Shown here piece after piece: positions 4,505 through 60,875 of a stretch of DNA of 64,000 nucleotides; position 1 is the stretch's first letter; the number at the start of each line of letters is the position of its first letter. The notes beneath the pieces are model-generated. The model had not been told where the DNA came from, did not search any database, and was given only the letters and a program-made list of their open reading frames with translations. The DNA comes from Eledone cirrhosa (Eukaryota), in the NCBI GenBank assembly GCA_964016885.1, contig OZ024740.1, positions 261,764,001 through 261,828,000 of the forward strand. The letters are read 5' to 3'. The position numbers were made by a program, and so were the translations under genes.

Positions 4505-4595
4505 GTATATAAAAGGAATGATCGACTTTCGTCAAATCGGACCGAGCATACAATGATTTCCTCGGTCTTTCCAATTCCCAATATAAATATCTATC

Positions 4596-14670: not shown

Positions 14671-14804
14671 AGTCTTATTTAAAAAAAAAATATATATATA
14701 TTTATTTGGTTCCTTTACCGGTTTCGCAGTTCTTCTGCTTTTCAAAAGTAGAGTTGAGATGGAGGGTCTGTGGTTTTTCTCACATCTATTTATATATATA
14801 TATA

Positions 14805-14892
<88 letters not shown>

Positions 14893-15024
14893 TATATATA
14901 TATATAAATAGATGTGAGAAAAACCACAGACCCTCCATCTCAACTCTACTTTTGAAAAGCAGAAGAACTGCGAAACCGGTAAAGGAACCAAATAAATATA
15001 TATATATTTTTTTTAAATAAGACT
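14671..15024. repeat. Perfect ~120 bp inverted repeat around (TA)n; each arm carries a degenerate minimal HHR
   Basis: Arms 14671-~14790 and ~14905-15024. Right arm 14949-14984 reads CTT-TTGAAAA-GCAG AAGAA CTGC-GAAA-CCGG-TA-AAG, then AATAAA. Confidence 0.85.
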
Positions 15025-21170: not shown

Positions 21171-21216
21171 CAAATACTGGAATTGAACTTGAGGTATGTC
21201 ATACATCAATTCATGT

Positions 21217-21280
21217 ATTTTACCTGACGAGGACGTACTGAAGAAACAGCACAGTACCTTCGAAATATATATAATAAAAC
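21217..21280 (+). ncRNA. Type I hammerhead motif (PLE pLTR-type)
   Basis: TTTTAC-CTGACGA-GGACGTACTG..CAGTACCTTC-GAAA-TATATA-TA-ATAAAAC; palindromic stem III, AATAAA overlapping. Confidence 0.65.
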
Positions 21281-21585
21281 ATATATTTTGATTATGTGAA
21301 TGTCTTCATTTATTATTATTCTGAATAAGTTTATATATATATATATTGCTTTCGTTTGCCTCTCTTATTTCTACCTTGTTCCTTTTCACCTCCTCCTTTC
21401 TTTCTCTCCCCTCTATTTCTCTGTTTTTTCTTTACCTCCGTTTCTTCTTTCTCTCCGTCTTTTTTCTAACTGTGCTTAACACTATAACTAAATAAGTATA
21501 AACAAATCACTACCCAGACAGCTTCCTAATTTAATGGTCGCTTATAATATGGTACGTCAAAATTATTTATAAAGCTGTTTATATA

Positions 21586-21652
21586 TTGTATTTTATCTGA
21601 CGAAGGCATGCCATATTTTTAATATGGTATCCCTGAAATATGTATAAAGAAA
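21586..21652 (+). ncRNA. Type I hammerhead motif (PLE pLTR-type)
   Basis: TATTTTAT-CTGACGA-AGG C ATGCCATATT TTT AATATGGTAT C CCT-GAAA-TATGTA-TA-AAGAAATA. Confidence 0.7.
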
Positions 21653-21694
21653 TAAATATGGTTTTATAAATATAGTTTCCATTTGTTTAATATC

Positions 21695-21782
<88 letters not shown>

Positions 21783-21784
<2 letters not shown>

Positions 21785-22350
21785 GAATGTATGTATAGTA
21801 TATTTGGCAATATACCGTATGTTTAATTAAAAACATTTTGAAGACAGTACTCTATCATTTTTAAAGTAGTGACTATGTCACTTACTTCTATTTTCGGCAG
21901 AAGAAGGGAGAGACGCTGACAGATTCTGTTTCACGCTGTTGGCGATCCTCAGAGCATCGTACTCCCCGCCTCTGCCGAAAATTATAGAGTCTGGATTCTT
22001 ATAGAATTCCAGTAATAATCAGGAACTGAATATACAGAGCGATTGCCGGTCCAGCAAAAATTAAAAATTAGGATTGGAGCTCTGAAATAGCGATGTATAC
22101 ATGAATGTATGTATAGAATATTTGGTAATATACCGTATGTTTAATTAAAAATATTTTGAATACCTTGCGCTATCATTTTTAAAGTATGTCACTTACTTCT
22201 TTTTTCGGCAAAAGAAGTAAGTGACATAGTCACTACTTTAAAAATGATAGCGCAAGGTCTTCAAAATGTATTTAATTAAACATACGTTATATTGCCAAAT
22301 ATACTATACATACATTCATGTATACATCGCTATTTCAGAGCACCAATCCC
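21783..22350 (-). mobile_element. Non-LTR retrozyme-like element: ~318 bp monomer, 1.4 tandem copies plus an inverted partial copy
   Basis: 21783-21900 is repeated at 22101-22215. 22211-22350 is the reverse complement of ~22070-22200. Intact HHR at 21912-21958. Homologous to 49049-49431. Confidence 0.8.
21890..21982 (-). ncRNA. Type I hammerhead ribozyme with intact core, GUC cleavage triplet and long interrupted stem I
   Basis: Minus strand ATTTTCGGCAGAGGCGGGGAGTAC GATGCT-CTGAGGA-T CGC CAACA GCG T-GAAA-CAG AAT CTG-TC-AGCGTC TCTCCCTTCTTCTGCCGAAAAT. Confidence 0.88.
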
Positions 22351-22379
22351 AAATATATATATTTATACTTAGGATAACA

Positions 22380-23595
22380 GTAGCTAAAAACCTCTCTAGA
22401 GTAGATTTATTAGACATTAATTTAGACCTTCGCACACACACCTACAGACCCTTCCATAAGCTAAACGAAAAACTTAATTACATTCACAGGGACTCATGCC
22501 CCCCCCCCCCCCCACTGTTTTTAGAAACTTCGTAAATAATATCACTACTAGAATCTCAAACCTCTCCTCTAATAAGGCTATCTTTGACAGTGCGGCACCC
22601 TACTATAACACGACGATAGCTAACAGCGGCTTCTCGCAACCTATCACTTACTCTCCCACTAACAACAACAGCAATAAGAAAAGAAAGCGTAACAATAGAC
22701 AAACTATCTGGTTCTCTCCTCCCTTCTCACTCAACGTTAAAACCAATGTAGGCAAAACATTTCTATCCCTCTTAGATAGATACTTCCCCATAGGTCATAA
22801 ATACCGCTCCATTTTTAACCGACACAAAGTCAAACTAGGATAATCCTGCGCTAAGAACATGAAGGCCCACATCACCAACAGCCCTAAGAACAACACCCCA
22901 CCAGGGTGCTCTTGCCGTAAGCCCGAGGCTTGTCCCATTCAACTGCAATGCAACACACCCGCTGTAGTTTATGAAGCTGTGGTCACTTCCAACGACCAAA
23001 TCAACTACAGGCAGTCAAATCCTATGTGGATATAGCGGACGACCGATTTAAGGAACGCTTCCTGAACCACCAGTCGACCTTTAGGTACCCGGACAGACGT
23101 TCATCCACAAAACTCGCGAGCCCCCTATGGTCCCTCAGGGACTCAAGTATAGACTACTCCATTCAATGGAAAGTCATCACTAAGTCCAAGCCATACGCAA
23201 GGGGCAATCCGTCGTGTGGACTATGTATTGATGAACGAATAAATTTTCTAAAGAGATTATGAAATAGTGATTGCCTAAATACGAGAAATGAATTCTTCAC
23301 ACGTTGTCCACACGCCTGGAAACACCTCTTACAAAGCTCCGCATTGAATTACAACAACATCCTAATTTTCTTATCAACTAGAAACTTTCGGACTTTCGCA
23401 GTTATCTCCCTTACACCTCTCGCACGCAATTTAGTATTGCCTTTGTGAAGTGATCGTTTCTGCGCATGCGAATTCGTACGGTTGTCCTTCCTGTTCCCTA
23501 TAACCATGTCTATTACGAGCTGAGGATCCGCTAAGGTGAAACAATTCTACTCGGCATGGTGAACTAACTGTTGTGTAACCACTTCTCTCTCAGTC

Positions 23596-23600
<5 letters not shown>
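22380..23600 (+). mobile_element. 5'-truncated Penelope-like element (RT end, GIY-YIG) with pLTR
   Basis: LLDINLDL..YRPFHKLNEKLNYIH, IWFSPPFSLNVKTNVGKTFL, CSCRKPEACP, FKERFLNHQSTFR, CGLCIDE; HHR at 23516. Confidence 0.85.
23516..23553 (+). ncRNA. Minimal type I hammerhead in PLE pLTR
   Basis: CGAG-CTGAGGA-T CC GCTAA GG T-GAAA-C AATT C-TA-CTCG (one stem III mismatch). Confidence 0.75.
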
Positions 23601-33763: not shown

Positions 33764-33802
<39 letters not shown>

Positions 33803-33803
<1 letters not shown>

Positions 33804-36800
33804 GAAGAAGACGCACGAGGTGGCGGAGGTCATGAAATCGCTCCCGTAAGTTTTGAATTTTTAACATATTTAAATCATTTGTGAAATAACAACTCTTAGT
33901 ACAAATGCTACGTAAAGCACCCGGCTTGAGTCCCAAAAAATTCGGACCCAAAATATATTGTTATAAGGCTCAAATATTCAAATATTCAACTTTGTATTGT
34001 ACACTGTATATCCAAAAAAGAAAATGGCTATAAATGGAAGAAGAACGCCCCCCCCCTTCTCTCCTCTGTCTACACTATATAGAACAGCCAAACTCAACAA
34101 CACCAGAAACTAGATACACCACCCACCTCATCACCTGTGTACACTAAACACAACAGCCAGATAACGGCATTTTCACCACCACCGCTCACTACTGCCATCA
34201 TTACCACCACTATTCCATCACCGCCGCCACCACCCCTTCACTCCTTCACTGCTACCACCGCTACAACACCATCACTACAGTAATACGACCACATCACCAC
34301 CACCACTGCCTCGGTATCGACATCACCACCACCACTGTCTCAGTATCGCTACCGCCGCCAGTCTCCCACTTCTCCCTGCTGGCTGCTGCCACCACATTAT
34401 AGAATTCCTACTACTAAAAAAGAGGAAGGCATCAAATATATAGATAGACTCAAAAAAAAAAGAAAAAACAAACAACAAAACCAAAGCAGCACAGCAACAA
34501 CAGCAAAAAACGAGAAAAACAAACAGAGAAAAACAAAAACAAAAAAAACAAAAAACGTAAAGAAAATAAGAATGAAGAGAGAAGCAGGCGGACGGACAGA
34601 GAAGAGGGGGAAAAAACTAAAACTAAAAAAACAAAAACTAAGTCAGACATTCGAACACTACATTACAATGAAACTTATGCTTATTCATTTTTGGGGCCCT
34701 TTCTGCCTGTGTGTTTGTTTGTTTATGTGTGTTCGTATACAGCGTGGTGATAATGCCACACAAGGGCCAAGTGGAACGGCGAATCCACAGATGGCAATGT
34801 AACCATACATTCGCCAATCCTCGATAAGAGTGTTTAAATATCGAACATAAACAGTTCGAATAACGGTGAAATGGAGACTAGAACGTCATGTGACAGACTC
34901 TCACCCAACAGGTGCCCCCTGGCTCAGCAGCAGGAACCTGACTGTCAACCAAATACTGCTGATGTTGGAGGAAGAAGAAGAAGGAAAGGGGCCAGAACCA
35001 ACTGGACGAAAGAATTGAATAGAACTGTTATGCAATGTTACCTGAAAAGTAACCCCAAGGAGAGGGGCTACAGGAGACGGATGCATAACATCTGGAACGA
35101 GATTGGTCTATTTAAATTAGATGAACAAAAATTGGCCGGGCAGGCTCGGGTAATAAGAACTAATGGGTGGATAAGCGAGCTGGAACTGGAGGAACTGAGC
35201 AGAGAGAATGGCTTGGAGATGGCGGGTGTAGTATGCCAGACAAGCGAGCCAGTGGGAAATGAAGGTGAAGAGGTCCTGAGAACGGAGGAACCACCCGAAG
35301 CAGACAATGATCTGAATACTGAGATAAATAATACCTGGAACAGAGATACGGCCACTGAGGAGATGAATGTTGACGGGCTAGGGCAAGATTCGGTTGACAT
35401 CCTAAATTTAGTGGTAGATGAATTGAACAATAATCGTGGGAGACCTATGAACCTAAGATTTGTAGACAGGAAAAAGTTAAAAGAAACAACAGCTAAGGTA
35501 AACAAAGTCATCCCATACCTTGAGGCGAGGAGCCTTCACCAGTGCAACAATATCCTCAAAGCAACAGCAAATACGGTGAGGAAACTACTTGGTATAAAAG
35601 CGAGAGGAAACAACAGACAAGAAAGAGCAGAGCCGTGGTGGAAGAAACGACTGAGTGGTCAAATCGGGGAAATGAGAAATGACATAGGAAAGCTTGAGTC
35701 ACTACTGAATGGGACACTAAAAAACATAGGCACTAAAAATAGACTGGAAATAAAGTACAAAACTAGGAGGAAAAAGCTAAATATTATCATAGAGGAACTG
35801 AAGCAACGCATTGTAGCAAAGAGTGCAAAAATCAAGTGATACGAGAACAGAGTCAGTCAGTATAAACAGAACCGCAGATGCTGTTTGGACAGCTTGAGGG
35901 GAAAGAAAGAGGCAACGACTTGATCCCTGGGGCGGAGCAAACTAAAACATTCTGGAGAGGAATATGGGAGCAGGATGTTAGACATAATGTCCAGGCAGGG
36001 TGGATTGAGACAGCACAGAGGGAGATCGGTGAGCAGGCACACCAACAAACTGATTTGAGTATCACAGTTGAAACTCTTAAGGGGCAGGCCAAAAAACTAA
36101 CCAACTGGAAATCACCAGGCCCAGATGGTGTGCAGGGGTATTGGATTAAAAATTTAACATCCCTCCACCCGAAGCTGACGGCCATGTTCAATGACTGCTT
36201 GGTGTCGGGTGAGGTGCCAGAGTGGTTGACAAAAGGTACCACAGTTCTGATAATGAAAGACCGAATCAAGGGTAATGATGTTACCAACTATAGACCTATC
36301 ACATGTCTGTCCGTAATGTGGAAACTGTTGACGAGCATTGTGTCTGAGGAAATCTACCATCACCTCCACACAAACAACTTGTTACCGGACGAACAGACGA
36401 AGTCTCGTGGTACAAAGGACCAGTTACTTATTGATAAGATGGTAATGGGGAATTGCAGGAGGAGACACACTGATCTTGCCATGGGATGGATAGACTACAG
36501 AAAGGCATTTGACATGGTGCCTCATTCTTGGATCACCAAAAGCCTGGAGATCTTCAGGGTGGCAGATAACATCAGACAGTTGCTGGGCAGGAGTATGCGG
36601 TCCTGGGAGACAGAGTTGACATCAACTGGAGTATCCTTGGGAAGCGTGAAGATCAAGAGAGGTATCTTCCAGGGAGATAGCCTGTCCCCTCTGTTGTTTG
36701 TCCTTGCCCTGATGCCCTTGACCATTATGCTGCGAAAAGTGAGAGCAGGATACAAGTTGGGAAAGGGAGAGCTTACTATCAATCACCTCCTCTTCATGGA

Positions 36801-38308
36801 CGATCTTAAGCTCTTCGGGAAAAGTGAGAAGGAGTTGGATGTGCTTGTTGACACTGTCCGTATTTTCAGCAGTGATATATGTGTATGCAGTTTGGTATTA
36901 GTAAATGTGGAGTCATTGTGATGAGGAGGGGTAGGTTGAGCAGAAGTAACGGGATCCAGATATCAACAGGTGAGATGATAAAGGAAATTGACTCTGAGGA
37001 AGGATACAAGTATTTGGGCGTTCTGGAGGCTGATGGCATAAAGAACAAAAAAATGAAGGAATTGTGAAGAACTGAATACATTCGGAGAGTAAGGAGCGTA
37101 TTGAAGTCACATCTGAACAGCAGAAATGCCATAAGCGCAGTAAATTCCCGAGCTGTGTCTATTATTAGGTACAGTGCGGGAATTCTGAGATGGAATGTTG
37201 CTGAACAAAAAGAAATGGATAGGAAGACTAGGAAGCTATTGACTATCGACAACATGTTCCACAAGAGGAGTGATGTCGATAGACTCTACCTAAGGAGATC
37301 TGAGGGTGGAAGAGGTCTTATCAGCATAGAGAACTGTGTTCAGATGGAGAAAAACAACCTATACAAATACGTGACCTATAGTAAGGAGCCAATGCTCAGA
37401 ACTGTACTGAAGGAGGGGACAGTAGGCCAGGGGATGTCCAAGGAGGAAATAACATCAAGGAGGATGAGCAGCCTTAAGGGAAAATCCCTTCCTAGTACCT
37501 TCTTTGAGAAAACTGAATTTAGAGATCCACAGACATGGAACTGGTTGAGAAGAGGAGACCTCAACAAGGCTACAGAAGGAATGCTAATGGCTGCGCAGGA
37601 GCAGGCCCTCAAAACGAAGTGGTTGAAGCACCATATTTACAAGGAGGAGGCTAGCCCACTGTGCAGGATCTGTGGAGAGAGAGAGGAGACTGTGGCTCAC
37701 ATTGTGTCCGAGTGTAAACACCTAGCCCAGACCCACTATAAGGGCTGGAGACACGATGTGATGGGCAGGGTGATCCACTGGCACCTGTGCAAAGTAAACA
37801 ATTTACCACATTCTGAGAAATGGTATGAGCATAGGCCAGAGGCGGTGATGGAGAACAATCAGGTGAAGGTGCTGTGGGATTTTAGGATACAGACGGACAA
37901 AAAACTGGAACACAATAGACCTGACCTGGTGGTTGTGGACAAAGAAAAAAGATCGTGTCTGATTGTGGATGTGGCCTGCCCGTTCGACACGAGAGTGCAA
38001 GAGAAGGAGAGGGAGAAAATTAACCGATACCAGGACCTAAAGTGGGAGGTGAAAAGGATTTGGAACTGCCATGAAGTCAAAGTGATCCCGATTGTCATAG
38101 GCGCACTGGGGACTATCTCCAAAAGTTTCCAGGGATGGTTAAAGAAAATCGGCCCCTTCACGCTTTTTGGAACGCTTCAAAAGGCATGCTTGCTGGGAAC
38201 AGCAAGAACCCTACGATACGTCCTGAATATCTGAGGCTGCAGGTAGTGGCTTGATATTCATTCCAACGGACTTTCCAGTTAACCAACATCAATGACTGAG
38301 ATTCAAGG
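33803..38308 (+). mobile_element. Full-length R4/Dong-like RLE non-LTR retrotransposon family A, copy 1 (ORF disrupted)
   Basis: ~1.07 kb 5'UTR. ORF pieces 34871-38234 give Myb-like RTNWTKELN, RT (QGDSLSP, FMDD), CRIC..H..C, RHD, RPD..D..K. (AAT)n on both sides. Confidence 0.93.
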
Positions 38309-44279: not shown

Positions 44280-47200
44280 GCTCGCAATGCTCACATTAAG
44301 GAACCACTCATGATAATAACAATTTAAAAAAAACAACAAAAAGAAAACCCCGTGACCAAGAAATACCGGGATGGCGGCCGGCGGGGAATAGCCATGTCTC
44401 TAGGGGAGAACGACCCCTCTAGTCTTGGTTGACACTCGTTCTAGAAGTGGTAACACGAAATGATTACCCCTTGGCGGATAAGGATAAAACGCGACAAAAT
44501 AAAGTAGATGTCTAATGATGAAATCTCATACCGGATCGGCCGTCACCCGGGTAAAAAAGGGCCGCGTCCCTCAGAGAGGAACCAGACTGGGGTCGAAAAA
44601 TCAGCTAATGGTTCAAACCTTCCCATCACTTCGGAGCTGGAGACCTCCCATAACCGGAATACTCCTACTGTTGGCCCTCCATGCTCACCACCAAGAAATC
44701 CAAAGAAAAAGAGAGAAAAATGGTCAAGGGAAGATAATAAAGAAGTCCTTGAGGCTTTCTACACTGCCATGTACTACCCATCAAATACATCGAATACAGA
44801 ACAAACATATATCAACTGGAAAAAGAAACATCCCGAAAACAGAGGCTATATTGATAGTAACAAACTAGCCAATATACGAAGAAATATTGTAAGAAAAAAG
44901 TTACTAACTGATATAGAAATTGATCAGATCAAGCTAGTAGCACAAAGTCAGCGAAGGGAAAATGAAGCATGTGTCAGTGAAAACGAGGTAAACTGTAACA
45001 CTTCGAATCCCAGGGTTGGGGCGGAATCACTGGCAACAGAACAAATTAAAGAAAGGAGCGAAAAAGTGGAGGGAGTGCATGCTCAGGATGAAACTCCAAA
45101 TGAAAATAATGAGATCGTAAATGATAAAGAAATGAATGAGAATGAACTTGCCAACTTGAAGGATGAAATTATGATCGAATGGATGAAAATGAAAGAATCT
45201 GACATGGGGGAACGAGACACCCTCCCTAAGATCCAGAACTCCAAACAGAACCAAAAGATAATACACAAGACTAACATAATTCTCAAAAACATTATCATCA
45301 CAAACAAACTAAACATTACTGACTTAAATCATCTCTATTATGCATCGGCTAAAGTCACCACTCACTTATGTGGAGCGAAGATGAAAAAACAAAGGAATTC
45401 CCACAAGAAATCTACTTGGCAAGATAACATCAATCGCCAAATAAACCTTCTCCGATCTGACATAGAAATTTTAACAAACTATAAAGTAGGTGAACATGTT
45501 AAACAAACTAAACTTAGAAAATTGAAAAAAAAGTACAGTATAAGATCAACATGTGACATAGACATGCTGATAGAAACAATCAAGCAAAAAGTGTCGGCCA
45601 AAGCTGCTCGTATAAGGCGCTTTGAAAAACGATCTAGATTCTATAAGGACAATAATATGTTCAAAAACAACCAAAGAAACTTCTACAGAAAAATTGGTAA
45701 GTCAACAATAACTGCTAAATCAATACCACCCAAGGAGGAAGTGCAAGAATTCTGGGAAAAGATCTGGGCCGAAGAAAAAGTTCATAACATACATGCCCCA
45801 TGGATAGACAGACAAATGAAAGAAACAGCTCACCTTGAAGAACAAACATGGGAAAATATAACAGTTGAACAGCTGCGCTTGGCTCTAAGAAAAACCAGCA
45901 AATGGAAATCCCCAGGAAAAGACAAAATACAAAACTTTTGGATAAATGCCTTCACAGAGTCTCATGAGCTGTTAGCCCAACTTTACAATGAAATAGTTAA
46001 GGAGCCAGAAAAGATACCATCATGGCTAGTTAACGGCATTACATTCCTGCTACCGAAGAATGATGAAACAAACAATCCCAAAAATTACAGACCGATAACC
46101 TGCTTGACCACAATGTATAAAATTTTAACATCAGTCCTAACTGAATACACATATGACCACCTGATAACAAATGACCTATTTCCCATTGAGCAGAAAGGGT
46201 GTAAACGAGGCTCATATGGCTGTAAGGATCAGCTTCTGGTTAACAAAATGATACTGGAAGATTGTCATAATAGACACAAAAATCTATCGATTGCTTGGAT
46301 AGATTATAAAAAAGCATTTGATAGTTTGCCACACAGTTGGATTGAAAAATGTTTAGAGATTTTCAAAATATCCCCCGTTGTCAGGAGGTTTTTGTCATTC
46401 AGTATGAGGACATGGAGAACGACACTCCTTTTGAATAGTGAAACAAAATCACTGGAAGCTGGAGAAGTTAACATTAATTGTGGAATTTTTCAGGGTGACT
46501 CTTTATCACCGCTTTTATTCTGCATCACACTTATACCATTAAGTAAAATGCTCAATGAAACAAAACATGGATATAGAGTCTATGACAAAACCATTAATCA
46601 CCTGTTCTACATGGATGACCTGAAACTATTTGCAAAAAATGATGAACAATTGCAAGGGCTATTATCCACTGTGAAGCAGTTCAGTGATGACATTAAAATG
46701 GAGTTTGGACTGGATAAATGCGCCAAAGCAACGTTCACCAGAGGAAAGCTGCTGAAGAGTTCAGACATTAATCTTGATCGGGGGAACGTGATAAGAGAGC
46801 TTGATCAAGAACAGACTTACAAATATCTAGGTGTTTGTGAAGGAGACGGAATCAAGCACTCGACAATGAGGGAAAGGATAAGGAAGGAATGTTACCGCAG
46901 AGTCAGAGCAATCTTAAGAACGGAATTGAATGCAAGGAATAGGATCGATGCCATAAATACGCTTGCCATACCAGTAGTAACCTACAGTTACAATGTCATC
47001 AACTGGTCAAGCACAGAGATCCGTAGGCTCGATACAAAAATCCGAAAATTCTTAACCATGCACAGAATGCATCACCCTAAGGCAGATATAGATAGAATAT
47101 ATCTCCCTAGTAAAGAAGGAGGACGCGGGTTAATACAGTTAGACATTGCGTTGAAAACTGCAACACTTGGATTATCCACATATCTAAGGGAATCACATGA

Positions 47201-48298
47201 TTGGATGATCAAACTCGTTTTGAAACACGAAAGCACGAAAAGATCATACTCCATTACAAAAGATGCACAAAGATACAGTAATGGACTACAAATTTCAGAA
47301 GTCCCATTTACTGCTGAAATGGAAAACACAGAAAAAGCAAAGCAGGTAAAAGTAACTGCAAAGAAAGAACTGCTACAGAAACTGGCTAAGAAATGGCAAG
47401 AAAAGCCTCTGTATGGAAAATACCCAGAGCGAGCTAACAATCCTGATGTTGACAAAACTTTAACCCATCAGTGGTTGGCATCCTCTGGACTGAAATCGGA
47501 GACCGAAGGACTGATTATATCCGCACAAGATCAGTGTCTGCCAATAAAAAATTACCAAGCCAACATAATAAAAAATGGGTGCAGTCCATTATGCCGTGTA
47601 TGCAAAAAACAACCAGAGACCATTGACCATATAATTTCAATGTGCAGTCCTATAGCTCCAACCGAATACCTAAACAGGCATGACAGAGCTGCACAATACA
47701 TACATTGGATAATGTGTAAGCATTTTGACCTTCCCCATCAAAAGAATTGGTGGGAACATCAACCACCTCCCATACTTGAAAAAGATCACATCTCAATCTT
47801 GTGGAACTTTAGCATCCAAACAGACCGAAAAATAGATGCAAATAGACCTGATATAATATTGAAGGACTTTCAAAGGAGGGTATGCCTGCTAATTGATATG
47901 TCTGTTCCAATAGACAAGAATGTATCTATAAAAACATTTGAAAAATTGAGCAAGTATAAGGACCTGGAGATAGAAATTGGAAAAATGTGGAAATTGAGAA
48001 CTAAAACAATACCAGTGGTTGTAGGCGCTCTGGGAATGATACCTAAGGGGTCTAACGACTACTTATCGCAAATCCCAGGAAACGCGTGTATAGGAGAAAT
48101 ACAAAATATAGTACTAATGGGAACTGCCCATATACTAAGGAAGATCCTGTCAATATAAGTACATCACAAGTCTAAACACTAAGGATGCATGTGTGAATAT
48201 GTATGTTCTTTCTTGAACATGGCGGACCTTGTTGTCTCTTGAGGTCACTGGTTGTGACTTGGTGATAACTTGTATAAACATAAAGCAAGATAAATGCA
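44280..48298 (+). mobile_element. R4/Dong-like RLE non-LTR retrotransposon family B, apparently intact
   Basis: (AAT)n at 44253-44279 and 48299-48347; single long ORF; ~140 nt 3'UTR. Confidence 0.95.
44508..48158 (+). CDS. Reverse transcriptase / restriction-like endonuclease polyprotein (1216 aa), R4 clade
   Basis: Myb-like REKWSREDN; KSPGKD, NYRPITCL, WIDYKKAFD, QGDSLSP, YMDD; CRVC..H..C; RHD; RPDII..IDMS..EKLSKY. No stops. Confidence 0.96.
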   Translation: MSNDEISYRIGRHPGKKGPRPSERNQTGVEKSANGSNLPITSELETSHNRNTPTVGPPCSPPRNPKKKREKWSREDNKEVLEAFYTAMYYPSNTSNTEQTYINWKKKHPENRGYIDSNKLANIRRNIVRKKLLTDIEIDQIKLVAQSQRRENEACVSENEVNCNTSNPRVGAESLATEQIKERSEKVEGVHAQDETPNENNEIVNDKEMNENELANLKDEIMIEWMKMKESDMGERDTLPKIQNSKQNQKIIHKTNIILKNIIITNKLNITDLNHLYYASAKVTTHLCGAKMKKQRNSHKKSTWQDNINRQINLLRSDIEILTNYKVGEHVKQTKLRKLKKKYSIRSTCDIDMLIETIKQKVSAKAARIRRFEKRSRFYKDNNMFKNNQRNFYRKIGKSTITAKSIPPKEEVQEFWEKIWAEEKVHNIHAPWIDRQMKETAHLEEQTWENITVEQLRLALRKTSKWKSPGKDKIQNFWINAFTESHELLAQLYNEIVKEPEKIPSWLVNGITFLLPKNDETNNPKNYRPITCLTTMYKILTSVLTEYTYDHLITNDLFPIEQKGCKRGSYGCKDQLLVNKMILEDCHNRHKNLSIAWIDYKKAFDSLPHSWIEKCLEIFKISPVVRRFLSFSMRTWRTTLLLNSETKSLEAGEVNINCGIFQGDSLSPLLFCITLIPLSKMLNETKHGYRVYDKTINHLFYMDDLKLFAKNDEQLQGLLSTVKQFSDDIKMEFGLDKCAKATFTRGKLLKSSDINLDRGNVIRELDQEQTYKYLGVCEGDGIKHSTMRERIRKECYRRVRAILRTELNARNRIDAINTLAIPVVTYSYNVINWSSTEIRRLDTKIRKFLTMHRMHHPKADIDRIYLPSKEGGRGLIQLDIALKTATLGLSTYLRESHDWMIKLVLKHESTKRSYSITKDAQRYSNGLQISEVPFTAEMENTEKAKQVKVTAKKELLQKLAKKWQEKPLYGKYPERANNPDVDKTLTHQWLASSGLKSETEGLIISAQDQCLPIKNYQANIIKNGCSPLCRVCKKQPETIDHIISMCSPIAPTEYLNRHDRAAQYIHWIMCKHFDLPHQKNWWEHQPPPILEKDHISILWNFSIQTDRKIDANRPDIILKDFQRRVCLLIDMSVPIDKNVSIKTFEKLSKYKDLEIEIGKMWKLRTKTIPVVVGALGMIPKGSNDYLSQIPGNACIGEIQNIVLMGTAHILRKILSI

Positions 48299-48349
<51 letters not shown>

Positions 48350-48350
48350 A

Positions 48351-51300
48351 GGGAAGATACGCACATGGTGGATAGGGTATTATGGAATCGCTCCCGTAAG
48401 TTTTTGATTTTTTACATATTTAAAACAATTGTGATAGAATAATTCTTATTACAAATGAAACGTAAGATATCAGTTTTTACTCTCAGGAAGTGGCAACGCA
48501 TCACATTACGGCATAGGGCTCCAATATGTAATATTTAATTTAATATTTAATTTTGTACCAGAAATCTTATAGTCAGAAAAGAAAATGGCTAGAAAATAAC
48601 AGCCAAATAACTTCACCACCAGCACCACCACCACCGCCGCCGCCACCATCACCATCACCACTACCACAAAAAATCTAGCCAAATACAGACCAGCACCATC
48701 CCTATGGCGCTGCTGTACCATCACCACCGCCGCCGCTGCATCGTCGCTGCCGCCACTGTTCCCTCACTGCTTGAGAGAGGGCTGGTGATGCCGCTACACA
48801 TGAAGGGAAGCGAGGAAGGTATCAAAAGATATAAATAGACTGGGTTAATGACTCGGTCAAACAGCTAACAACAACAACAACACCAAAATAATTATGTTGT
48901 TGTATCTTTAAACTCTCTCAAAATGTTTAGTTTAAACGATGTCAAATCTAAACTATAATATAATAATAATAATTGTTTTTATAGTCAGAAAAGAAAATGG
49001 CTAGAAAACAACAACCAAATAACCTCACCGCCAACACCACCGCCGCCGCTCCCCTGTTTGCTGAAAATTTAAAGTAAGTGAGTCTGTCACTACTCTAAAA
49101 CAATAGCATAAGGTCTTCGAAATGCTTTTAATTAAGCATACAGTGTATTGTAAAATATACTATATATACATTCATATATATATCTATATCTATTTCAGAG
49201 CGCCAATTCTAATTTTCAATTTCTGTTTGAGCGGCAACCGCTCTGTATAATCAGTTCCTGATTATTACTAGAAATTCTATAAGAATCAAACATTCATGAT
49301 TTTCAGCAAACAGGTGGAGTACTTGGCTTTGATAAGTACCAATCAGTACGAAACATAGCTCCGTCAGCTTTATCTCCCCTGTTTGCTGAAAATTTAAAGT
49401 AAGTGAGTCTGTCACAACTCTAAAACAATAGAGATGAAATCACCGGTAGTTATGTAACCATACATTCACCAATCCTCGATATGAGTGCTTAAATGTCGAA
49501 CCTAAACAGTTCGAATTACGGTGAAGTGGAGACTGGAATGTCATGTGACAGACTCTCACCCAGCAGGTGCTCCCTGGCCCAGCAGCAGGGACCTGGCTGT
49601 CATCCAATTACTGCTGGTGTTGGAGGAAGAAGAAGGAAAGGGACCAGAACCAACTGGACGAAATAATTGAATAGAGCTGTTATTCAATGTTACCTGAAGA
49701 GTAACCCCAAAGAAAAAGGCTATAGGAAACGGATGCATAACATCTGGAACGAGATTGGTCTATTTAAATTAGATGAACAAAAATTGGCCGGGAAGGCTCG
49801 GGTAATAAGAACTAATGGGTGGATAAGCGAGCTGGAACTGGAGGAACTGAGCAGAGAGATTAGGTTGGAAATGGAGAGTGGAGTAATGCCAGGCAAACGA
49901 GCCAGTGGGAAATGAAGGTGAAGATGTTGAGAGAACAGAGGAACCATCTGAATGCTGAAATAAATAATACCTGGAACAAAGATACGGCTATTGAGGAAAT
50001 GAATGCTGACGGGCTAGGACCAGATTTTGTTGATATCCTAACCTTAGTGGTAGATGAAATGAACAATGTTAGTGGGAAACCTATGAACCTAAGATTTGTA
50101 GACAGGAAAAAATTAAAGGAAACAACAGCTAAGGTAAACTAAGTCATCCCACACCTTGAGGCGAGGAGCCTTCACGAGTGCAAAAATATCCTCAAAGCAA
50201 CAGCAAATGCGGTGAGGAAATTACTTGGCATAAAAGCGAGAGGAAACAACAAACAAGAAAGACCAGAACCTTGGTGGAGGAAACGACTGAATGGTCAAAT
50301 CAAGGAAATGAGAAATGACATTGGAAAGTTTGAGTCCCTACTGAATGGGACACTAAAAAACATAGACACTAAAAATAGACTGGAAATAAAGTACAAAACT
50401 AGGAGGAAAAAGCTAAATATTATCATAGAGGAACTGAAGGAACGCATTGTAGCAAAGAGTGCAAAGATTAGGCGATACGAGAGCAGAGTCAGTATAGACA
50501 GAACCGCATGTTTGACAACAACCAGAAGATGTTGTTTGGACAGCTTGAAGGGAAAGAAAGAGGCAACGACTTGATCCCTGAGGCGGAACAAACTAAGACA
50601 TTCTGGAGAGGAATATGGGAGCAGGATGTTACACATAATGACCAAGCAGTGTGGATTGAGACAGTACAAAAGGAGATTAGTGAACAGGCACACCAACAAA
50701 CTGATTTGAGTATCACAGTTGAAACTCTTAAGGGGCAGGCCAAAAAACTAACCAAATGGAAATCACCAGGCTCAGATGGTGTGCAGGGGTACTGGATTAA
50801 AAATATAACATGCCTCCACCCGAAACTGACAACCATGTTCAATGACTGCTTGATGTCAGGTGAGGTACCAGAGTGGTTGACAAAAGGTACCACAGTTCTG
50901 GTAATGAAAGACCGAATCAAGGGTAATGATGTTACGAACTATAGACCTATCACATGTCTGTCCGTAATGTGGAAACTGTTAACAAGCATTGTGTCTGAGG
51001 AAATCTATCATCACCTCCACATAAACAACTTGTTACCGGACGAACAGAAAGGATGCTGAAAGAAGACTCGTGGTACAAAGGACCAGTTACTTATTGATAA
51101 TATGGTAATGAGGAATTGCAAGAGGAGACACACTGGTCTTGCCATGGGATGGATAGATTACAAAAAGGCTTTTGACATGTACCGCATTCTTGGATAACCA
51201 AAGGCCTAGAGATCTTCAAGGTGGCAGATAACATCAGACAGTTGTTGAGCAAAAGTATGAAGTCCTGGGAAACAGAGTTAACATCGGGTGGAGAATTCTT

Positions 51301-51522
51301 GGGAGGCGTGAAGATCAAGAGAGGTATCTTCCAGGGAGATAGTTTGTCCCCTCTTCTGTTTGTCCTTGCCCTGATACCCCTGACCGTTATATTGCGAAAA
51401 GTGAGATCAGGATACAAGTTGGGAAAAGGAGAGCTTACCATCAACCACCTCGTCTTCATGGACGATCTTAAACTCTTTGGGAAAAGTGAGAGGGAGTTGT
51501 ACTTGTTGACACTGTCCGTATT
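48351..51522 (+). mobile_element. Older, diverged family A copy; 5'UTR rearranged, 3'-truncated
   Basis: Starts GGGAAGATACGCAC like the other A copies. ORF pieces 49667-51529 are homologous to 34871-36870. UTR segment duplicated (48569/48981) around a short (TAA)n. Confidence 0.88.
49049..49431 (+). mobile_element. Retrozyme-like ~325 bp monomer with 58 bp terminal redundancy and degenerate HHR, inserted in a LINE 5'UTR
   Basis: ctcccctgtttgctgaaaat..aaacaatag at 49049 and 49374. GGCT-TTGATAA-GTAC CAATCA GTAC-GAAA-C..G-TC-AGCT at 49325-49369. Homologous to 21783-22350. Confidence 0.8.
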
Positions 51523-53543: not shown

Positions 53544-56500
53544 GGCGACCTACGTAGGAAATCGTATTATCGTGAGCTCCGCAAAGGTTTGTTATTTCCG
53601 TTTGTTTAAAAATTGCCATGTATGGAAAATTTTATTGTAAACTGTTTATAAGCACACATACATTGTTTTCCGAAAAGGACACCCAAAAAGATTGGGGCCT
53701 TGTGCCCAAAAGAGTTCACGGTAACTCAAGAAGATTTAGAAAATGCCAAACAAATGGTAAAGAAAGATGGGTACAGGGTCAGCCTCCCCCCCCCCCCACC
53801 TAATAAAATGGAGCATCGGCGCCTGTGCACCGTGTCGTATAGAACAATAAATGTAAAATCGCGCCGAGTGGAACGGGCATCCGAGTCCCAAATCCAAAAA
53901 GCTTTGGGACATGTGTGGGCAAGAAAAACCCACATCAGACGTGGGCAAAAGTATGGAACCGTGGATGTGTTCTTTGAAACACCAGAGGAGGCTAGAGAAC
54001 ACTCCATGGCCCCATTAAAAAGTGACGACTTCACACTCGTCCCAAGCTATTGTGGCCAGAGACTCGTAAAGATCAGGGTGACCCACGTTCCACCGGCCAT
54101 CGAAATTCCCTGGCTAATAGCGGCTGTCATCGCCGGCATCGAGGCCAACACGAAAATAATAACAATAGCAAAAGAAAAGCAGGAAAACTGGTCCGGATCT
54201 GGGATGGAGCTCCTGATCCAAGCGGACCAAAAAAGCATTGAGGAGATCCCAGAGGTAATAGACCTCACTGACGGCAGCCACCTCACGGTAATTGTCGAGG
54301 GCAGAAGACCTAGGTGTGTCGTTTGTGGTGAAGGAACCCACCTAAGGGCTTTCTGCCCTCAGGCTAAAAGGTTGAGGCCACCTCTCCTACCCACCCCAGT
54401 GACACAACCATCAACACCACCAGTAGCAGAGATGGCAGCAACACCTGTAGCAGCAACAACAGAAGCAACTATAACAGCAACAACCCCAGCAACAGTAGCA
54501 AAACCAACACCACTACCACCACCAGCAAGACCAACACCACCACCACCCAACGCTTCAGAACTAGCACCAGCGCCTACACCTTCCACCACACCACAACCAA
54601 AACTAACGGCTGTGGAGGATTTTCCACTCCCCGGCCTATCACAACTGGAGACAGATTGTAGCGACGAGGAGTGGGAAACGATATTCGGAAAAAAAAAAGA
54701 AACCAAAAAAGAAAAAATTCTCTTCCTTCCCCCTCCAAAAACAAAATACAGAGGGAAACAAATAAACTAAGAAACAAAAAAGTTAGGACAGATATGCCAC
54801 CATCCACACCAGCATCACCAACCCCATCAACCCAAACACCAACACCATCACCATCATTAACTCCAACACCACCATCACCTACACCACAAAAGTCACCAAA
54901 GTGCGAAACAGAAACAAACCCACAACAAACGCAAACAAAACAAAACAACCAAAACGATACACACTACACAGCATTAAATTTGAACAACAAGCAATTATTA
55001 CACTACATCCAACACAACACCAGCATCACAGAAAAAGACTACACAACAACCCCAAAATTCACACCACCTCCACACATACAAATCACTCGCATCACACAGA
55101 AAACGTACATGACACTAAAACAAAAATTCCCCAAAGACATCGGAGACTTCCGACAAGCACTCTCCAGGAGGATTTATAAGGACATCCTTCCTGAGGAGGC
55201 CACAAGCAGTGAAAAGGATGGAAAAGCCGTCCTTCCCCTACGAGAAGTAAGGTAAGTGGTCTTTCCCATCTTTTCCACTCCTTTTCAACATGACCTCACT
55301 CAGAATAGGCAGCATAAATGCGCGTGGCTTGGGGTCGTCATGGAAGCAGGGCCACCTGCTCAACGACCTCAGGTCACTAAACATAGATGTAGTGGCCATC
55401 AGCGAGACCAGAATCTCCGAAGCACAGGCTTTCGCACCGATCTTCGGCGGCTACGATGTGTACGCATCTCCCAGCCGTCCGGGATCGGGGGGAGGAGTTG
55501 CTGTGCTTTTTCGGAGAGGTTTGGATCTTGCCATACGGGCCATCTTCCTGGACCCAGAAGGTAAGTTGGTGGTGCTGGACGTGACCAGCGGAGACGGGCA
55601 AGCTTTCAGGTTAGTGGCCGTCTATGCCCCGACAGGAGCAGGGCGGCCTGATTTCTTCCGGCGTATGGAGACCTTTCTTGGAACGTCCCGCTCTTTAGTG
55701 TTAGTGGGCGACTGGAACGGGATCTTAGATGCACGCTGGGATTGTGTGGGATTAGTGGATAGGGAAGGAGGGTGCAAGAGTCTCACCAACCTGCTCAGAC
55801 GTTTTGAACTGTCTGACAGGTACCGAATGGATTTCCCGAATGTACCAATGTGGACTTGGACAAATCGCATAGGGTCATCCAGATCATATCTAGATAGAGT
55901 ATTTTGTAGGGAAATAGATAGGTCTAGCATAGGCTGTCCACAATTCAAGATAGTCAGCTACACGGACCACAAATTCGTGATCTGTGTGCTTGACTTAGAT
56001 AGGCTTCATAGACGAGGACCCGGCTACTGGAAGCTAAACGCGTCCTTACCAGCGCGCAAGGCCTACAGAGACCGGATTAGCGAACTAGTTAAGCGGGCGT
56101 TGACGGGGGCCATCGTCAACAACAAGTGGTGGTTTGCTCTGAAAAGAGCAATTAGAATAGAGTACATTAGGTTTAGTAAGACTTTAGCAATAGAGAAAAA
56201 TAGAGCAGAGGGAGAATTAGTTAGAAAATTAGATGAGGCGCTTAGCAAAGGCATCGCGACCGACGTGCTTGCGGCGAAATTGGCCCTTGACCAATTCTTC
56301 AATGCAAAGCACGAAGGCTGCGTTGTCAGAGCTAGGGTGCGTGCTCTCAGACACGAGGGGACGAAAGCCGTTCAATGGGCCCGAGTGGCGGAGGCGCGTC
56401 GTGGCAACAAAGCCACGATCCGGTCTTTGGTGGACCACGACGGGCGCATGCTACTCGATCCCGGGCAAATGTGTGAAGCTTTTCAGCGACACTTCGCGCA

Positions 56501-56570
56501 ACTGTTCGGGGGCAGTGGCGGGCCGGATCGAGGGATGGACTTTAGTGTCTACCTCGACGGACTGCCGCGG
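53544..56570 (+). mobile_element. Tx1-like copy 3: intact 5' end, ~0.5 kb deletion at the start of ORF1, 3'-truncated in ORF2
   Basis: GGCGACCTACGTAGG after (TTA)n; ORF1 53700-55255; ORF2 from ATG 55290 with an uninterrupted APE domain. Confidence 0.93.
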
Positions 56571-59500
56571 TATCGGTTAATTTTCTCCCTCTCCTTCTCT
56601 TGCACTCTCGTGTCGAACGGGCAGGCCACATCCACAATCAGACACGATCTTTTTTCCTTGTTCACAACCACCAGGTCAGGTCTATTGTGTTCCAGTTTTT
56701 TGTCCGTCTGTATCCTAAAATCCCACAGCACCTTCACCTGATTGTTCTCCATCACCGCCTCCGGCCTATGCTCATACCGTTTCTCAGAATGTGGTAAATT
56801 GTTTACTTTGCACAGGTGCCAGTGGATCACCCTGCCCATCACATCGTGTCTCCAGCCCTTATAGTGGGTCTGGGCTAGGTGTTTACACTCGGACACAATG
56901 TGAGCCACAGTCTCCTCTCTCTCTCCACAGATCCTGCACAGTGGGCTAGCCTCCTCCTTGTAAATATGGTGCTTCAACCACTTCGTTTTGAGGGCCTGCT
57001 CCTGCGCAGTCATTATCATTCCTTCTGTAGCCTTTTTGAGGTCTCCTCTTCTCAACCAGTTCCATGTCTGTGGATCTCAAAATTCAGTTTTCTCAAAGAA
57101 GGTACTATGAAGGGATTTTCCCTTAAGGCTGCTCTTCCTCCTTGATGTTATTTCCTCCTTGGACATCCCCTGGCCTACTGTCCCCTCCTTCAGTACAGTT
57201 CTGAGCATTGGCTCCTTACTATAGGTCACGTATTTGTATAGGTTGTTTTTCTCCATCTGAACACAGTCCTCTATGCTGATAAGACCTCTTCCACCCTCAG
57301 ATCTCCTTAGGTAGAGTCTATCGACATCACTCCTCTTGTGGAACATGTTGTAGATAGTCAATAGCTTCCTAGTCTTCCTATCCATTTCTTTTTGTTCAGC
57401 AACATTCCATCTCAGAATTCCCGCACTGTACCTAATAATAGACACAGCTCGGGAATTTACTGCGCTTATGGCATTTCTGCTGTTCAGATGTGACTTCAAT
57501 ACGCTCCTTACTCTCCGAATGTATTCAGTTCTTAACAATTCCTTCATTTTTTTGTTCTTTATGCCATCAGCCTCCAGAACGCCCAAATACTTGTATCCTT
57601 CCTCAGAGTCAATTTCCTTTATCATCTCACCTGTTGGTATATGGATCCCGTTACTTCTGCTCAACCTACCCCTCTTCATCACAATGACTCCACATTTACC
57701 AATACCAAACTGCATACATATATCACTGCTGAAAATACGGACAGTGTCAACAAGCACATCCAACTCCTTCTCACTTTTCCCGAAGAGCTTAAGATCGTCC
57801 ATGAAGAGGAGGTGATTGATAGTAAGCTCTCCCCTTCCCAACTTGTATCCTGCTCTCACTTTTCGCAGCATAATGGTCAAGGGCATCAGGGCAAGGACAA
57901 ACAACAGAGGGGACAGGCTATCTCCCTGGAAGATACCTCTCTTGATCTTCACGCTTCCCAAGGATACTCCAGTTGATGTCAACTCTGTCTCCCAGGACCC
58001 CATACTCCTGCCTAGCAACTGTCTGATGTTATCTGCCACCCTGAAGATCTCCAGGCTTTTGGTGATCCAGGAATGAGGCACCATGTCAAATGCCTTTCTG
58101 TAGTCTATCCATCCCATGGCAAGATCAGTGTGTCTCCTCCTGCAATTCCCCATTACCATCTTATCAATAAGCAACTGGTCCTTTGTACCACGTGACTTCT
58201 TTCGGCATCCTTTCTGTTCGTCCGGTAACTAGTTGTTTGTGTGGAGGTGATGGTAGATTTCCTCAGACACAATGCTCGTCAACAGTTTCCACATTACGGA
58301 CAGACATGTGATAGGTCTATAGTTGGTAACATCATTACCCTTGATTCGGTCTTTCATTATCAGAACTGTGGTACCTTTTGTCAACCACTCTGGCACCTCA
58401 CCCGACACCAAGCAGTCATTGAACATGGCCGTCAGCTTCGGGTGGAGGTATGTTAAATGTTTAATCCAATACCCCTGCACACCATCTGGGCCTGGTGATT
58501 TCCAGTTGGTTAGTTTTTTGGCCTGCCCCTTAAGAGTTTCAACTGTGATACTCAAATCAGTTTGTTGCTGTGCCTGCTCACCGATCTCCCTCTGTACTGT
58601 CTCAATCCACCCTGCCTGGGCATTGTGTCTAACATCCTGCTCCCATATTCCTCTCCAGAATGTTTTAGTTTGTTCCTCCCCAGGGATCAAGTTGTTGCCT
58701 CTTTCTTTCCCCTCAAGCTGTCCAAACAGCATCTTCTGGTTGTTGTCGAACATGCGGTTCTGTTTATACTGACTGACTCTGTTCTCGTATCGCCTGATTT
58801 TTGCACTCTTTGCTACAATGCGTTGCTTCAATTCCTCTATGATAATATTTAGCTTTTTACTCCTAGTTTTGTATTTTATTTCCAGTCTATTTTTAGTGCC
58901 TATGTTTTTTAGTGTCCCATTCAGTAGTGACTCAAGCTTTCCTATGTCATTTCTCATTTCCCCGATTTGCCCACTCAGTCGCTTCTTCCACCACGGCTCT
59001 GCTCTTTCTTGTCTGTTGTTTCCTCTCGCTTTTATACCAAGTAGTTCCCTCACCGTATTTGCTGTTGCTTTGAGGATATTGTTGCACTGGTGAAGGCTCC
59101 TCGCCTCAAGGTATGGGATGACTTTGTTTACCTTAGCTGTTGTTTCTTTTAACTTTTTCCTGTCTACAAATCTTAGGTTCATAGGTCTCCCACTATCATT
59201 GTTCAATTCATCTACCACTAAATTTAGGATGTCAACCGAATCTTGTCCTAGCCCGTCAGCATTCATCTCCTCAGTGGCCGTATCTCTGTTCCAGGTATTA
59301 TTTATCTCAGTATTCAGATCATTGTCTGCTTCGGGTGGTTCCTCCGTTCTCAGGACCTCTTCACCTTCATTTTCCACTGGCTCGCTTGTCTGGCATACTA
59401 CACCCGCCATCTCCAAGCCATTCTCTCTGCTCAGTTCCTCCAGTTCCAGCTCGCTTATCCACCCATTAGTTCTTATTACCCGAGCCTGCCCGTCCAATTT

Positions 59501-60831
59501 TTGTTCATCTAATTTAAATAAACCAATCTCGTTCCAGATGTTATGCATCCGTCTCCTGTAGCCCCTCTCCTTGGGGTTACTTTTCAGGTAGCATTGCATA
59601 ACAGTTCTATTCAATTCTTTCGTCCAGTTGGTTCTGGCCCCTTTCCTTCTTCTTCTTCCTCCAACATCAGCAGTATTTGGTTGACAGTCAGGTTCCTGCT
59701 GCTGAGCCAGAGGGCACCTGTTGGGTGAGAGTCTGTCACATGACGTTCTAGTCTCCATTTCACCGTTATTCGAACTGTTTATGTTCGATATTTAAACACT
59801 CTTATCGAGGATTGGCGAATGTATAGTTACATAGCCATCTGTGGATCCGCCATCCCACTTGGCCCTTGTGTGGCATTATCACCACGCTGTATACGAACAC
59901 ACATAAACAAACAAACACACAGGCAGAAAGGGCCCCAAAAATGAATAAGCATAAGTTTCATTGTAATGTAGTGTTCGAATGTCTGACTTAGTTTTTGTTT
60001 TTTAAGTTTTACTTTCCCACCCCTCTTCTCTGTCCGTCCGCCTGCTTCTCTCTTCATTCTTATTTTCTTTACGTTTTGGGGGTTTCTTTTTTTGTTTTTG
60101 TTTTTCTCTGTTTGTTTTTCTCGTTTTTGCTGTTGTTGCTGTGCTGCTTTGGTTTTGTTGTTTGTTTTTTCTTTTTTCTTTTGAGTCTATCTATATATTT
60201 TGATGCCTTCCTCTTTGTTAGTAGTAGGAATTCTATAATGTGGAAGTAGCAGCCAGCAGGGAGAAGTGGGAGACTGGCGGCGGTAGCGATACTGAGACAG
60301 TGGTGGTGGTGATGTCGATACCGTGGCAGTGGTGGCGGTGATGCGACCGTATTACTGTAGTGATGGTGCTGTAGCGGTGGCAGCAGCAGTGAAGGAGTCA
60401 AGGGGTGGTGGCGGCGGTGATGGGATAGTGGTGGTAATGATGGCCGTAGTGAGCGGTGGCGGTGAAGGTGAAAATGCTGTTGTGTTTAGTGTACACAGAT
60501 GATGGGGTGGGTGGTGTATCTAGTTTCTGGTGTTGGTGAGTTCGCTGTCCTATATAGTGTAGCCAGAGGAGAGGAGGGGGGGGGGTTCTTCTTCTTCCAT
60601 TTATAGCCATTTTTTTTTGGATATACAGTGTACAATACAAAGTTGAATATTTGAATATTTGAGCCTTATAACAATATATTTTGGGTCCGAATTTTTTTGG
60701 GGCTCAAGCCGGGTGCTTTACGTAGCATTTGTACTAAGAGTTGTTATTTCACAAATGATTTAAATATGTTAAAAATTCAAAACTTACGGGAGCGATTTCA
60801 TGACCTCCGTCACCTCGTGCGTCTTCTTCCC
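56569..60831 (-). mobile_element. Family A copy 3: full 5' end, two in-frame nonsense codons (58229, 57077), last ~280 nt missing
   Basis: ORFs 58229-59758, 57077-58174 and 56549-57055 are in the same frame; 5' end GGGAAGAAGACGCAC at 60831. Confidence 0.93.

Positions 60832-60875
<44 letters not shown>

Follow-up and report, generated by a model that had tools for sequence, protein, structure and literature searches.

A decayed hammerhead repeat inside a LINE of Eledone cirrhosa: a probable retrozyme and its possible route of spread

A stretch of 64,000 nucleotides from Eledone cirrhosa (assembly GCA_964016885.1, contig OZ024740.1, positions 261,764,001 to 261,828,000, forward strand; hereafter the window) carries, at 49049-49431 (+), a non-coding segment with a hammerhead ribozyme motif that is lodged in the 5' region of a long interspersed nuclear element (LINE). 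The locus raises the question of what this segment is and how it came to lie there. In our view the segment is probably a partly decayed insertion, within the LINE, of a non-coding 325-nt repeat with a hammerhead, whose family has spread through self-cleaving RNA, with a Penelope-like element (PLE) supplying the enzyme that copies it. The components of this answer differ in strength. Membership in the retrozyme class is highly probable and mobilisation by a PLE is likely, while a circular RNA template is the form towards which we lean.

The repeat unit and its abundance

Inspection of the segment reveals the same 58 bp at both of its ends. Positions 49049-49106 (+) and 49374-49431 (+), the latter forming a 3' overhang past the ribozyme, are identical at 57 of 58 letters with a spacing of 325, so that the copy comprises 1.18 units of a 325-nt monomer. 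This redundancy and its period, both directly visible, are as the first-pass annotation of this DNA had described them. A second family member of about 1.4 units lies on the minus strand at 21775-22217 (the 21.8 kb copy), with a period of 318 (311 across a 7-nt deletion) and a 3' end that runs into (TA)n. The proposed colinearity of the two copies was borne out by an alignment of 49057-49425 with 22212-21859 of the minus strand (277/371 identical or 75%, E 9e-58). No open reading frame (ORF) of at least 150 aa lies over either copy, and GC content is 0.33 for the unit at 49 kb (325 nt) and 0.37 for that at 21.8 kb (311/318 nt). Metazoan retrozyme units measure about 150-450 nt, have a GC content below 50% and carry a type I hammerhead, and all three properties are found here. 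The annotation's assignment to a retrozyme-type element is thus supported by the unit, the redundancy and the hammerhead in both copies.

The annotation had also set against its own reading the possibility of fixed ends typical of a miniature inverted-repeat transposable element (MITE). The 49 kb copy was examined for such ends and has neither a terminal inverted repeat (TIR; 8/30 matches) nor a target-site duplication (TSD), so this objection does not apply and a MITE was rejected. MITEs are likewise short, non-coding, repeated and endowed with inverted repeats, but in the present element the inverted repeat is internal and the ends are direct repeats.

To gauge abundance, contigs of sequencing runs X1, X4, X6 and X7 were aligned to 48700-49800, a 1.1-kb region that includes part of the LINE; there were 10 candidate runs, 7 of which contain part of the stretch (four organism labels, four studies), and none of those listed was an RNA run, which weighs neither way. 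The contigs aligned number 5,761 for X1, which may be related to the source of the window, 274 for X4, 5 for X6 and 11 for X7, the last three under three other organism labels, and several of the X6 and X7 contigs lie on TA-rich parts. Summed depth in run X1 is 50,000-690,000 over the unit versus 230-260 at 48700-48773, where summed depth is not copy number and the top bin is inflated by TA repeats. The retrozyme unit is a repeated family, present in many copies. In organisms A and D, contigs continue head-to-tail past the end of the 49 kb copy. Matches to an 18-nt conserved motif at 64 loci in metagenome contigs and 2 in viral contigs were dismissed as chance, as none of the 66 extends beyond 24 nt.

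The hammerhead and its covariation

The motif at 49299-49393 (+) is a type I hammerhead with an extended stem I, identified by its fold, a descriptor, a table of its pairs and a weak, sub-threshold alignment to the Rfam family HH9. Its helices can be read directly from the plus strand. The outer stem I (49299-49314/49378-49393) is complementary at 16/16 positions and is joined by a middle stem (49316-49319/49374-49377), a UAC bulge and stem Ia (49323-49328/49366-49371), in which 2/6 pairs are broken. These enclose the catalytic core UUGAUAA (49329-49335), a stem II of 4 bp (G10.1-C11.1) with a CAAUCA loop and the following GAAA (49336-49353), and stem III with the GUC site (49353-49365), where cleavage is predicted after 49365. 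Both copies possess three helices, a GUC site and a type I core, which takes the U3-A8 form at 49 kb and the C3-G8 form at 21.8 kb (21952-21946 on the minus strand, with predicted cleavage after 21918). A strict type I descriptor matched twice in the 64 kb, at these two copies, versus no match in 16 and one match in 4 of 20 shuffled windows; this descriptor was written with the motifs already in view and is biased towards both copies. Fold z-scores for the two copies are -6.1 and -5.6.

The two cores differ at paired positions 3 and 8 and at free position 7. The annotation had described the core of the 49 kb copy as mutated. The letters TTGATAA do stand at 49329-49335, but they do not confirm an inactivated core: they represent the known U3-A8 covariation of C3-G8 and recur in a second organism (B), from which a 103-nt contig matches 49256-49359 without substitution. 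In organism D, whose contigs include one across the core, 49151 is the only T>C position among those listed. Neither 49329 nor 49334 is among the 40 variant positions listed out of 84. Perreault et al. (PMC3088659) describe U3-A8 as a natural covariation and such ribozymes as reported active in vitro, and Cervera and de la Pena (PMC4209133) report about 1,300 U3-A8 minimal hammerheads in Schistosoma, sought after the variant had been seen in a PLE. The paired double change likely keeps the core of the 49 kb copy functional.

Damage in the 49 kb copy lies in stems III and Ia and not in the core. Substitutions at 49356 and 49362 break pairs 3-4 of stem III, leaving 2 pairs. In run X1 the pairing letter accounts for 29,436/39,012 of the depth at 49356 and 47,532/47,587 at 49362, and a letter other than that of the 49 kb copy is found in 67 and 87 contigs, respectively. 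Given the broken stem III pairs and the two open pairs of stem Ia, the 49 kb copy is probably a weakened representative of a U3-A8 subfamily, with the 21.8 kb copy belonging to a C3-G8 subfamily.

Comparison of the two copies was extended to all 35 pairs defined by the hammerhead topology. Twenty are identical, 8 are changed on both sides and still paired, 1 is changed on one side and still paired, and 6 are broken (4 in the 49 kb copy and 2 in the 21.8 kb copy). That is to say, 8 of 15 variable pairs are double-sided, versus 1.2-1.9 under random placement of the 26 differences (P <= 3e-5). The long stem alone gives 4/6 variable pairs of this kind (P <= 4e-4) and the hammerhead proper alone gives 4/9 (P 0.004-0.03). 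The compensatory changes that the annotation had noticed in stems I and II are confirmed by this pair table: the long stem is complementary at 16/16 positions at 49 kb and over 21 nt at 86% in the 21.8 kb copy, and stem II reads GTAC/GTAC at 49 kb versus CGC/GCG at 21.8 kb, with the CAA(U)CA loop kept in both. The accompanying claim of direct evidence for selection on RNA structure stands as far as the existence of these changes is concerned, and is overstated when drawn from the long perfect stem, because a perfect inverted repeat can be homogenised at the DNA level, the covariation comes from two phased copies, and outer-stem columns 13-16 adjoin a 1-nt indel. The best evidence at the RNA level is the 3-8 pair, which is changed on both sides from C-G to U-A; it is stronger than the long stem, since no DNA hairpin joins this pair of bases. 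Among 40-nt bins compared between the copies, that of the ribozyme 5' half has the lowest identity (65% vs 73-89%), yet its pairing is retained.

These observations bear on a reading in which the repeat is a fold-back DNA element, MITE-like or corrected as a hairpin, whose stems covary through DNA repair and whose hammerhead is a chance or vestigial feature. Such an element would account for the perfect 16-bp inverted repeat of the outer stem, for an opposite strand that folds equally well (z -6.0) and for the absence of a hammerhead at Rfam thresholds. It is nonetheless very unlikely, since the ends show neither TIR nor TSD, the complete core, the bulge and the type I-typical letters of loop 2 are retained, the double change at 3-8 falls outside any hairpin pair, and G-U pairs sit on the ribozyme strand (4 G-U vs 1 A-C, both copies). 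When one unit of the retrozyme is treated as a circle, it folds at z -6.2 and -5.2. A two-sequence covariance model recovers the known copies, their overhang and inverted pieces and the antisense strands, together with one further weak match at 9994-10160 (E 0.31).

The host LINE and the route of spread

The host of the 49 kb copy is a single-ORF LINE of R2/R4 type at 48348-51522 (+), located after an (AAT)n tract, with stops in its ORF and a putative ATG at 49493. Its family matches an intact neighbour, P0001 (37% and 29%), which itself matches R2 proteins in PDB over residues 449-1162. A reverse transcriptase (RT) domain was found in the host LINE, an APE domain match was not, and the element sits among (AAT)n tracts. 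It is likely Dong/R4-like, a placement made by its layout and the TAA context described for Dong (PMC3774820) rather than by a tree. The retrozyme insert ends 61 nt upstream of the putative ATG, and two relatives of this LINE in the window are without it. Adjoining its 5' junction, at 48979-49048 (+), is a 70-bp LINE piece that is a 90% copy of 48567-48637 in the same LINE 5' region and is likely a templated repair filler; the divergence of this piece (7/71) versus that of the redundancy (1/58) is not clearly greater (Fisher p 0.07). Of the X1 contigs, 14 differ in sequence before 49433 and one links 48983 with 49433 through 14 other letters, where the short side measures 24 nt; depth is 448 at the left junction and exceeds 85,000 over the LINE body. 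The annotation had taken the position inside the LINE 5' untranslated region as showing independent mobility. The part of this claim that stands is a secondary insertion into the LINE, supported by the relatives without the insert; an amplified LINE-ribozyme chimera is not supported.

The same data address two readings that would give the LINE a larger role. If the hammerhead were a regular part of a LINE subfamily, it would process the 5' end in place of the hepatitis delta virus-like ribozyme of Dong/R4. The sense orientation and the predicted cut 128 nt before the ATG would suit such a role, and Dong and R4 do use 5' ribozymes (PMC3774820), but the two relatives in the window that are without it, the X1 contigs with other sequence before 49433 and the junction depth relative to the LINE body largely refute this reading, to which we give almost no credence. 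Alternatively, the R2/R4-type (Dong-like) LINE may have acted as the mobiliser, making the 49 kb locus a product of LINE template switching. LINE copies are abundant in the window, and the retrozyme lies in sense orientation in a LINE 5' region beside the 70-bp LINE piece, which is no more than 90% like the local copy. This reading is unlikely, given that 3/3 of the 3' ends have no (TAA)n tail, that the 21.8 kb locus shows an inverted fragment, a (TA)n end and a PLE neighbour, and that the divergence of the filler is not clearly above that of the redundancy.

LINE copies fill much of the window. A dense LINE cluster with (AAT)n spacers extends over 28000-62500 and contains at least an R2/R4-type family at 33764-38031, 48348-51522 and 56569-60869, an intact 1,216-aa R2/R4-type ORF at 44508-48158 and an APE-bearing family at 55251-56738. 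A 12-nt perfect complement, possibly a chance occurrence, pairs 49405-49416 in the retrozyme 3' overhang with 49544-49555 at the start of the host LINE ORF.

The case for a PLE as mobiliser draws on the arrangement of the 21.8 kb locus. There, an inverted, 5'-truncated fragment of the unit (22210-22352, +), covering unit positions +26 to about +166 from the predicted cut, lies head-to-head with the 5' end of the second copy. Directly abutting it in the same orientation is a putative PLE fragment at 22360-23590 (+), 5'-truncated and frameshifted, which would comprise the C-terminal part of the ORF with a GIY-YIG-like end and is accompanied by a minimal hammerhead at 23520. Pieces of this ORF match one family of unnamed proteins, and GIY-YIG matches occur in 5/16 of its relatives, all under the Pfam cut-off. 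Pfam gave no match on the PLE fragments themselves, a search among longer proteins yielded none from 76 candidates, and P0005 had no match in PDB. From its motifs we take the fragment to be Neptune-like. Read as a PLE, it would place such an element in the same genome as the retrozyme. The single retrozyme-PLE junction fits a template switch or a neighbouring insertion alike.

Published descriptions of PLEs resemble this arrangement. PMC8557442 reports partial tandems with a 5'-truncated inverted copy alongside and a preference for (TA)n, and the inverted 5'-truncated copy, (TA)n end and adjoining PLE fragment at 21.8 kb match that description. For a lizard PLE, PMC11167929 shows RT that starts internally downstream of the ribozyme, cleavage of AT-rich DNA and extension of both strands. 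A link between retrozymes and PLEs is argued in PMC7229834, and a 2026 preprint (Li et al., 10.64898/2026.07.22.740005) argues that retrozymes derive from PLEs.

The ends of the copies provide further information about the template. The annotation had proposed that the 49 kb copy starts at another point of the unit, in a different circular permutation. Measured from the predicted cut, the 5' ends lie at +9 (49 kb), +12 to +19 (21.8 kb) and +26 (inverted fragment), all within the 3' arm of stem I and with those of the two copies about 10 nt apart. The 3' ends lie at +66, +132 to +143 and about +166, respectively. The 3' overhang alone differs, and the grouping of the 5' ends shortly past the cleavage site leaves random permutation unsupported. 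Separately, 16 contigs of run X1 depart from the 49 kb copy at 49184 (window 49184-49211); their letters resemble the 21.8 kb subtype and they run out in AT-rich sequence around unit position +166, where the inverted fragment also ends, which hints weakly at a 3' end preferred there.

A route of spread can be proposed that would produce such copies. Read-through transcription of a more-than-unit copy would supply RNA that the hammerhead would cut after GUC, and the monomers would probably be ligated into circles, as in known retrozymes. A PLE protein may then nick AT-rich DNA and begin RT internally, 66-166 nt downstream of the ribozyme, copying the uncut ribozyme and once round the unit until, within the 3' arm of the extended stem I (+7 to +28), it either halts or jumps to another template. 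Stalling or switching of this kind would generate 1.2-1.4-mers, clustered 5' ends, inverted 5' fragments or filler, and no fixed TSD. Selection on copies that are transcribed and cleave would maintain the helices and the 3-8 pair while their letters change, and individual insertions such as the 49 kb copy would subsequently decay.

The main rival retains both the element and the PLE mobiliser but omits the circular stage. A linear more-than-unit transcript with a ribozyme-cut 5' end would make the element a miniature non-autonomous PLE, which we regard as possible without expecting it; mobilisation by the LINE, a DNA fold-back and a LINE-borne ribozyme are each less likely. A linear template would place the 5' ends close to the cleavage site, where all three are found (9-26 nt after it), and a heterogeneous tandem would explain why the segment after the ribozyme, present three times at 21.8 kb, shows just 91-94% identity among its copies. 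The lizard PLE, moreover, uses unprocessed RNA, with cleavage dispensable in vitro (PMC11167929). In contrast, the 57/58 redundancy at 49 kb is expected of one template read twice, a circular template with stalling at stem I would give clustered ends as well, and 3/3 retrozymes tested by northern in PMC7229834 gave circles.

Several results weigh against a retrozyme spread through circles by a PLE. With respect to the ribozyme, Rfam at gathering thresholds finds 0 hammerhead matches in the window, HH9 scores 15 bits on the 49 kb copy versus a curated threshold of 52 (E 1.3), and none of 10 weak Rfam matches at 21.1-23.7 kb is a hammerhead; because Rfam does not call the motif, its identification rests on the core letters and helices. 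The antisense circle folds equally well or better (-85.2 vs -78.6; -77.7 vs -76.3), so fold stability does not pick the strand. Among predicted frog retrozyme dimers, 1/9 cleaved in vitro (10.64898/2026.07.22.740005). With respect to organisation, the window holds 1.18- and 1.4-mers and no array with two complete ribozymes, and the junction contigs of organisms A and D fit 1.x-mers equally well, none of those shown having two ribozymes. The clustering of 5' ends rests on three ends at two loci, the contigs of the four runs reveal no position where many begin or end, and the 49 kb insertion lies in a C-rich LINE context and not in (TA)n. As for the mobiliser, the PLE identity draws on unnamed homologues, sub-threshold GIY-YIG matches and motifs, and the unit bears no significant similarity to the PLE terminal region at 23300-23600 (44 and 124 of 300 shuffles score as well). 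Homology of the unit to this region was rejected, the similarity being within shuffle range, which counts against the local PLE as a direct parent.

A more ambitious joint reading is that the insertions record the Penelope mechanism itself (internal priming at a fixed distance past the ribozyme, arrest in stem I and two-sided priming in (TA)n), that 22352-22360 marks a template-switch chimera of retrozyme RNA and a Neptune-like PLE, and that two subfamilies cleave actively, the catalytic C3-G8 having been exchanged for U3-A8. Taken together these propositions are doubtful. Were they true, mapping thousands of ends would reveal the mobiliser of animal retrozymes and distinguish circular from linear templates.

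Relation to known elements

The element most closely resembles the metazoan non-LTR retrozymes (LTR, long terminal repeat) described from coral, mussel and axolotl (PMC7229834) and by Li et al. (2026). Shared features include a non-coding unit of 318-325 nt with a GC content of 33-37%, a canonical type I hammerhead, head-to-tail redundancy, a PLE in the same genome, no visible LTR, primer binding site (PBS) or polypurine tract (PPT), and the dispersed 'solo' copies described for that group. Size, GC, ribozyme type and organisation also fit the retrozymes of PMC7229834 and PMC7761336, and the U-U at the base of stem II in the 21.8 kb copy occurs in axolotl HHR_Amex2. Unlike those retrozymes as described in these sources, the present family combines U3-A8 and C3-G8 subtypes, has a 20-bp extension of stem I, presents a PLE-type inverted junction that is seen directly, and has no TSD; a two-ribozyme multimer is not among the sequences seen.

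Likeness to PLEs and the hammerheads of their pseudo-LTRs (PMC4209133, PMC8557442, PMC11167929) extends to the partial tandem, the inverted 5'-truncated copy, the AT-rich or (TA)n target, the location of the 3' ends past the ribozyme, and the U3-A8 cores of Schistosoma Cercyon minimal hammerheads. Unlike PLEs, the retrozyme has no ORF, its 325-nt unit is itself the repeat, and its ribozyme is not a minimal hammerhead but has loop contacts and a complete stem III. An autonomous PLE or PLE pseudo-LTR was rejected on the absence of an ORF and of similarity to the local PLE terminal region beyond shuffles. Plant LTR retrozymes (PMC4918200) are also non-autonomous, hammerhead-bearing and redundant at their ends, but they carry type III hammerheads within LTRs, a PBS and PPT, and 4-bp TSDs; the type I ribozyme, its single occurrence and the missing TSD led us to reject this class. 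A tRNA-derived short interspersed nuclear element was rejected as well, with ARAGORN finding 0 tRNA in the window, a search that could miss a decayed head.

Hammerheads in cephalopods are not new, since the giant squid genome paper lists 235 loci (PMC6962438). Neither this retrozyme family nor a C3-G8/U3-A8 split within one retrozyme family was found in open-access text, and the supplements of PMC7229834 or of the 2026 preprint could include the family. We therefore describe a new member of the metazoan non-LTR retrozymes, of moderate surprise to a specialist because earlier publications already contain each of the three components, namely the class, the core variant and the link to PLEs. In PMC7229834 and the 2026 preprint, both the mobiliser of animal retrozymes and the copying of circles are still argued from co-occurrence and trees. 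With its high copy number, PLE-type junctions, neighbouring PLE and ribozyme-tied ends, the present family makes this question testable by end mapping in one assembly, and the U3-A8 subtype warns that standard-core searches and Rfam thresholds miss whole subfamilies.

Other parts of the window contain further hammerhead-like motifs. The minimal hammerhead after the PLE fragment, at 23505-23570 (+), has G7 and a U-U at the base of stem II, as in the 21.8 kb core. At 14690-15020, two inverted arms of about 120 bp flank (TA)n, each with a minimal hammerhead-like motif (14952, +; 14745, -) that has a U3-A8 core, a palindromic stem III and a stem II of 4 bp. Taken by itself the fold scores weakly (z -0.7), and the arms may represent a second, PLE-derived U3-A8 family. 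Two minimal hammerhead-like motifs with a long stem II, recognised by eye at 21215-21295 and 21585-21660 (+), have fold z-scores of -3.6 and -2.2 and were missed by the descriptors. A broken ORF at 20380-21200 (-) gave no Pfam match and resembles a Tc1/mariner transposase in its motifs, judged by eye. Finally, 929-6331 holds a 2-kb inverted duplication that is 98.9% identical, with RT remnants between and around its arms.

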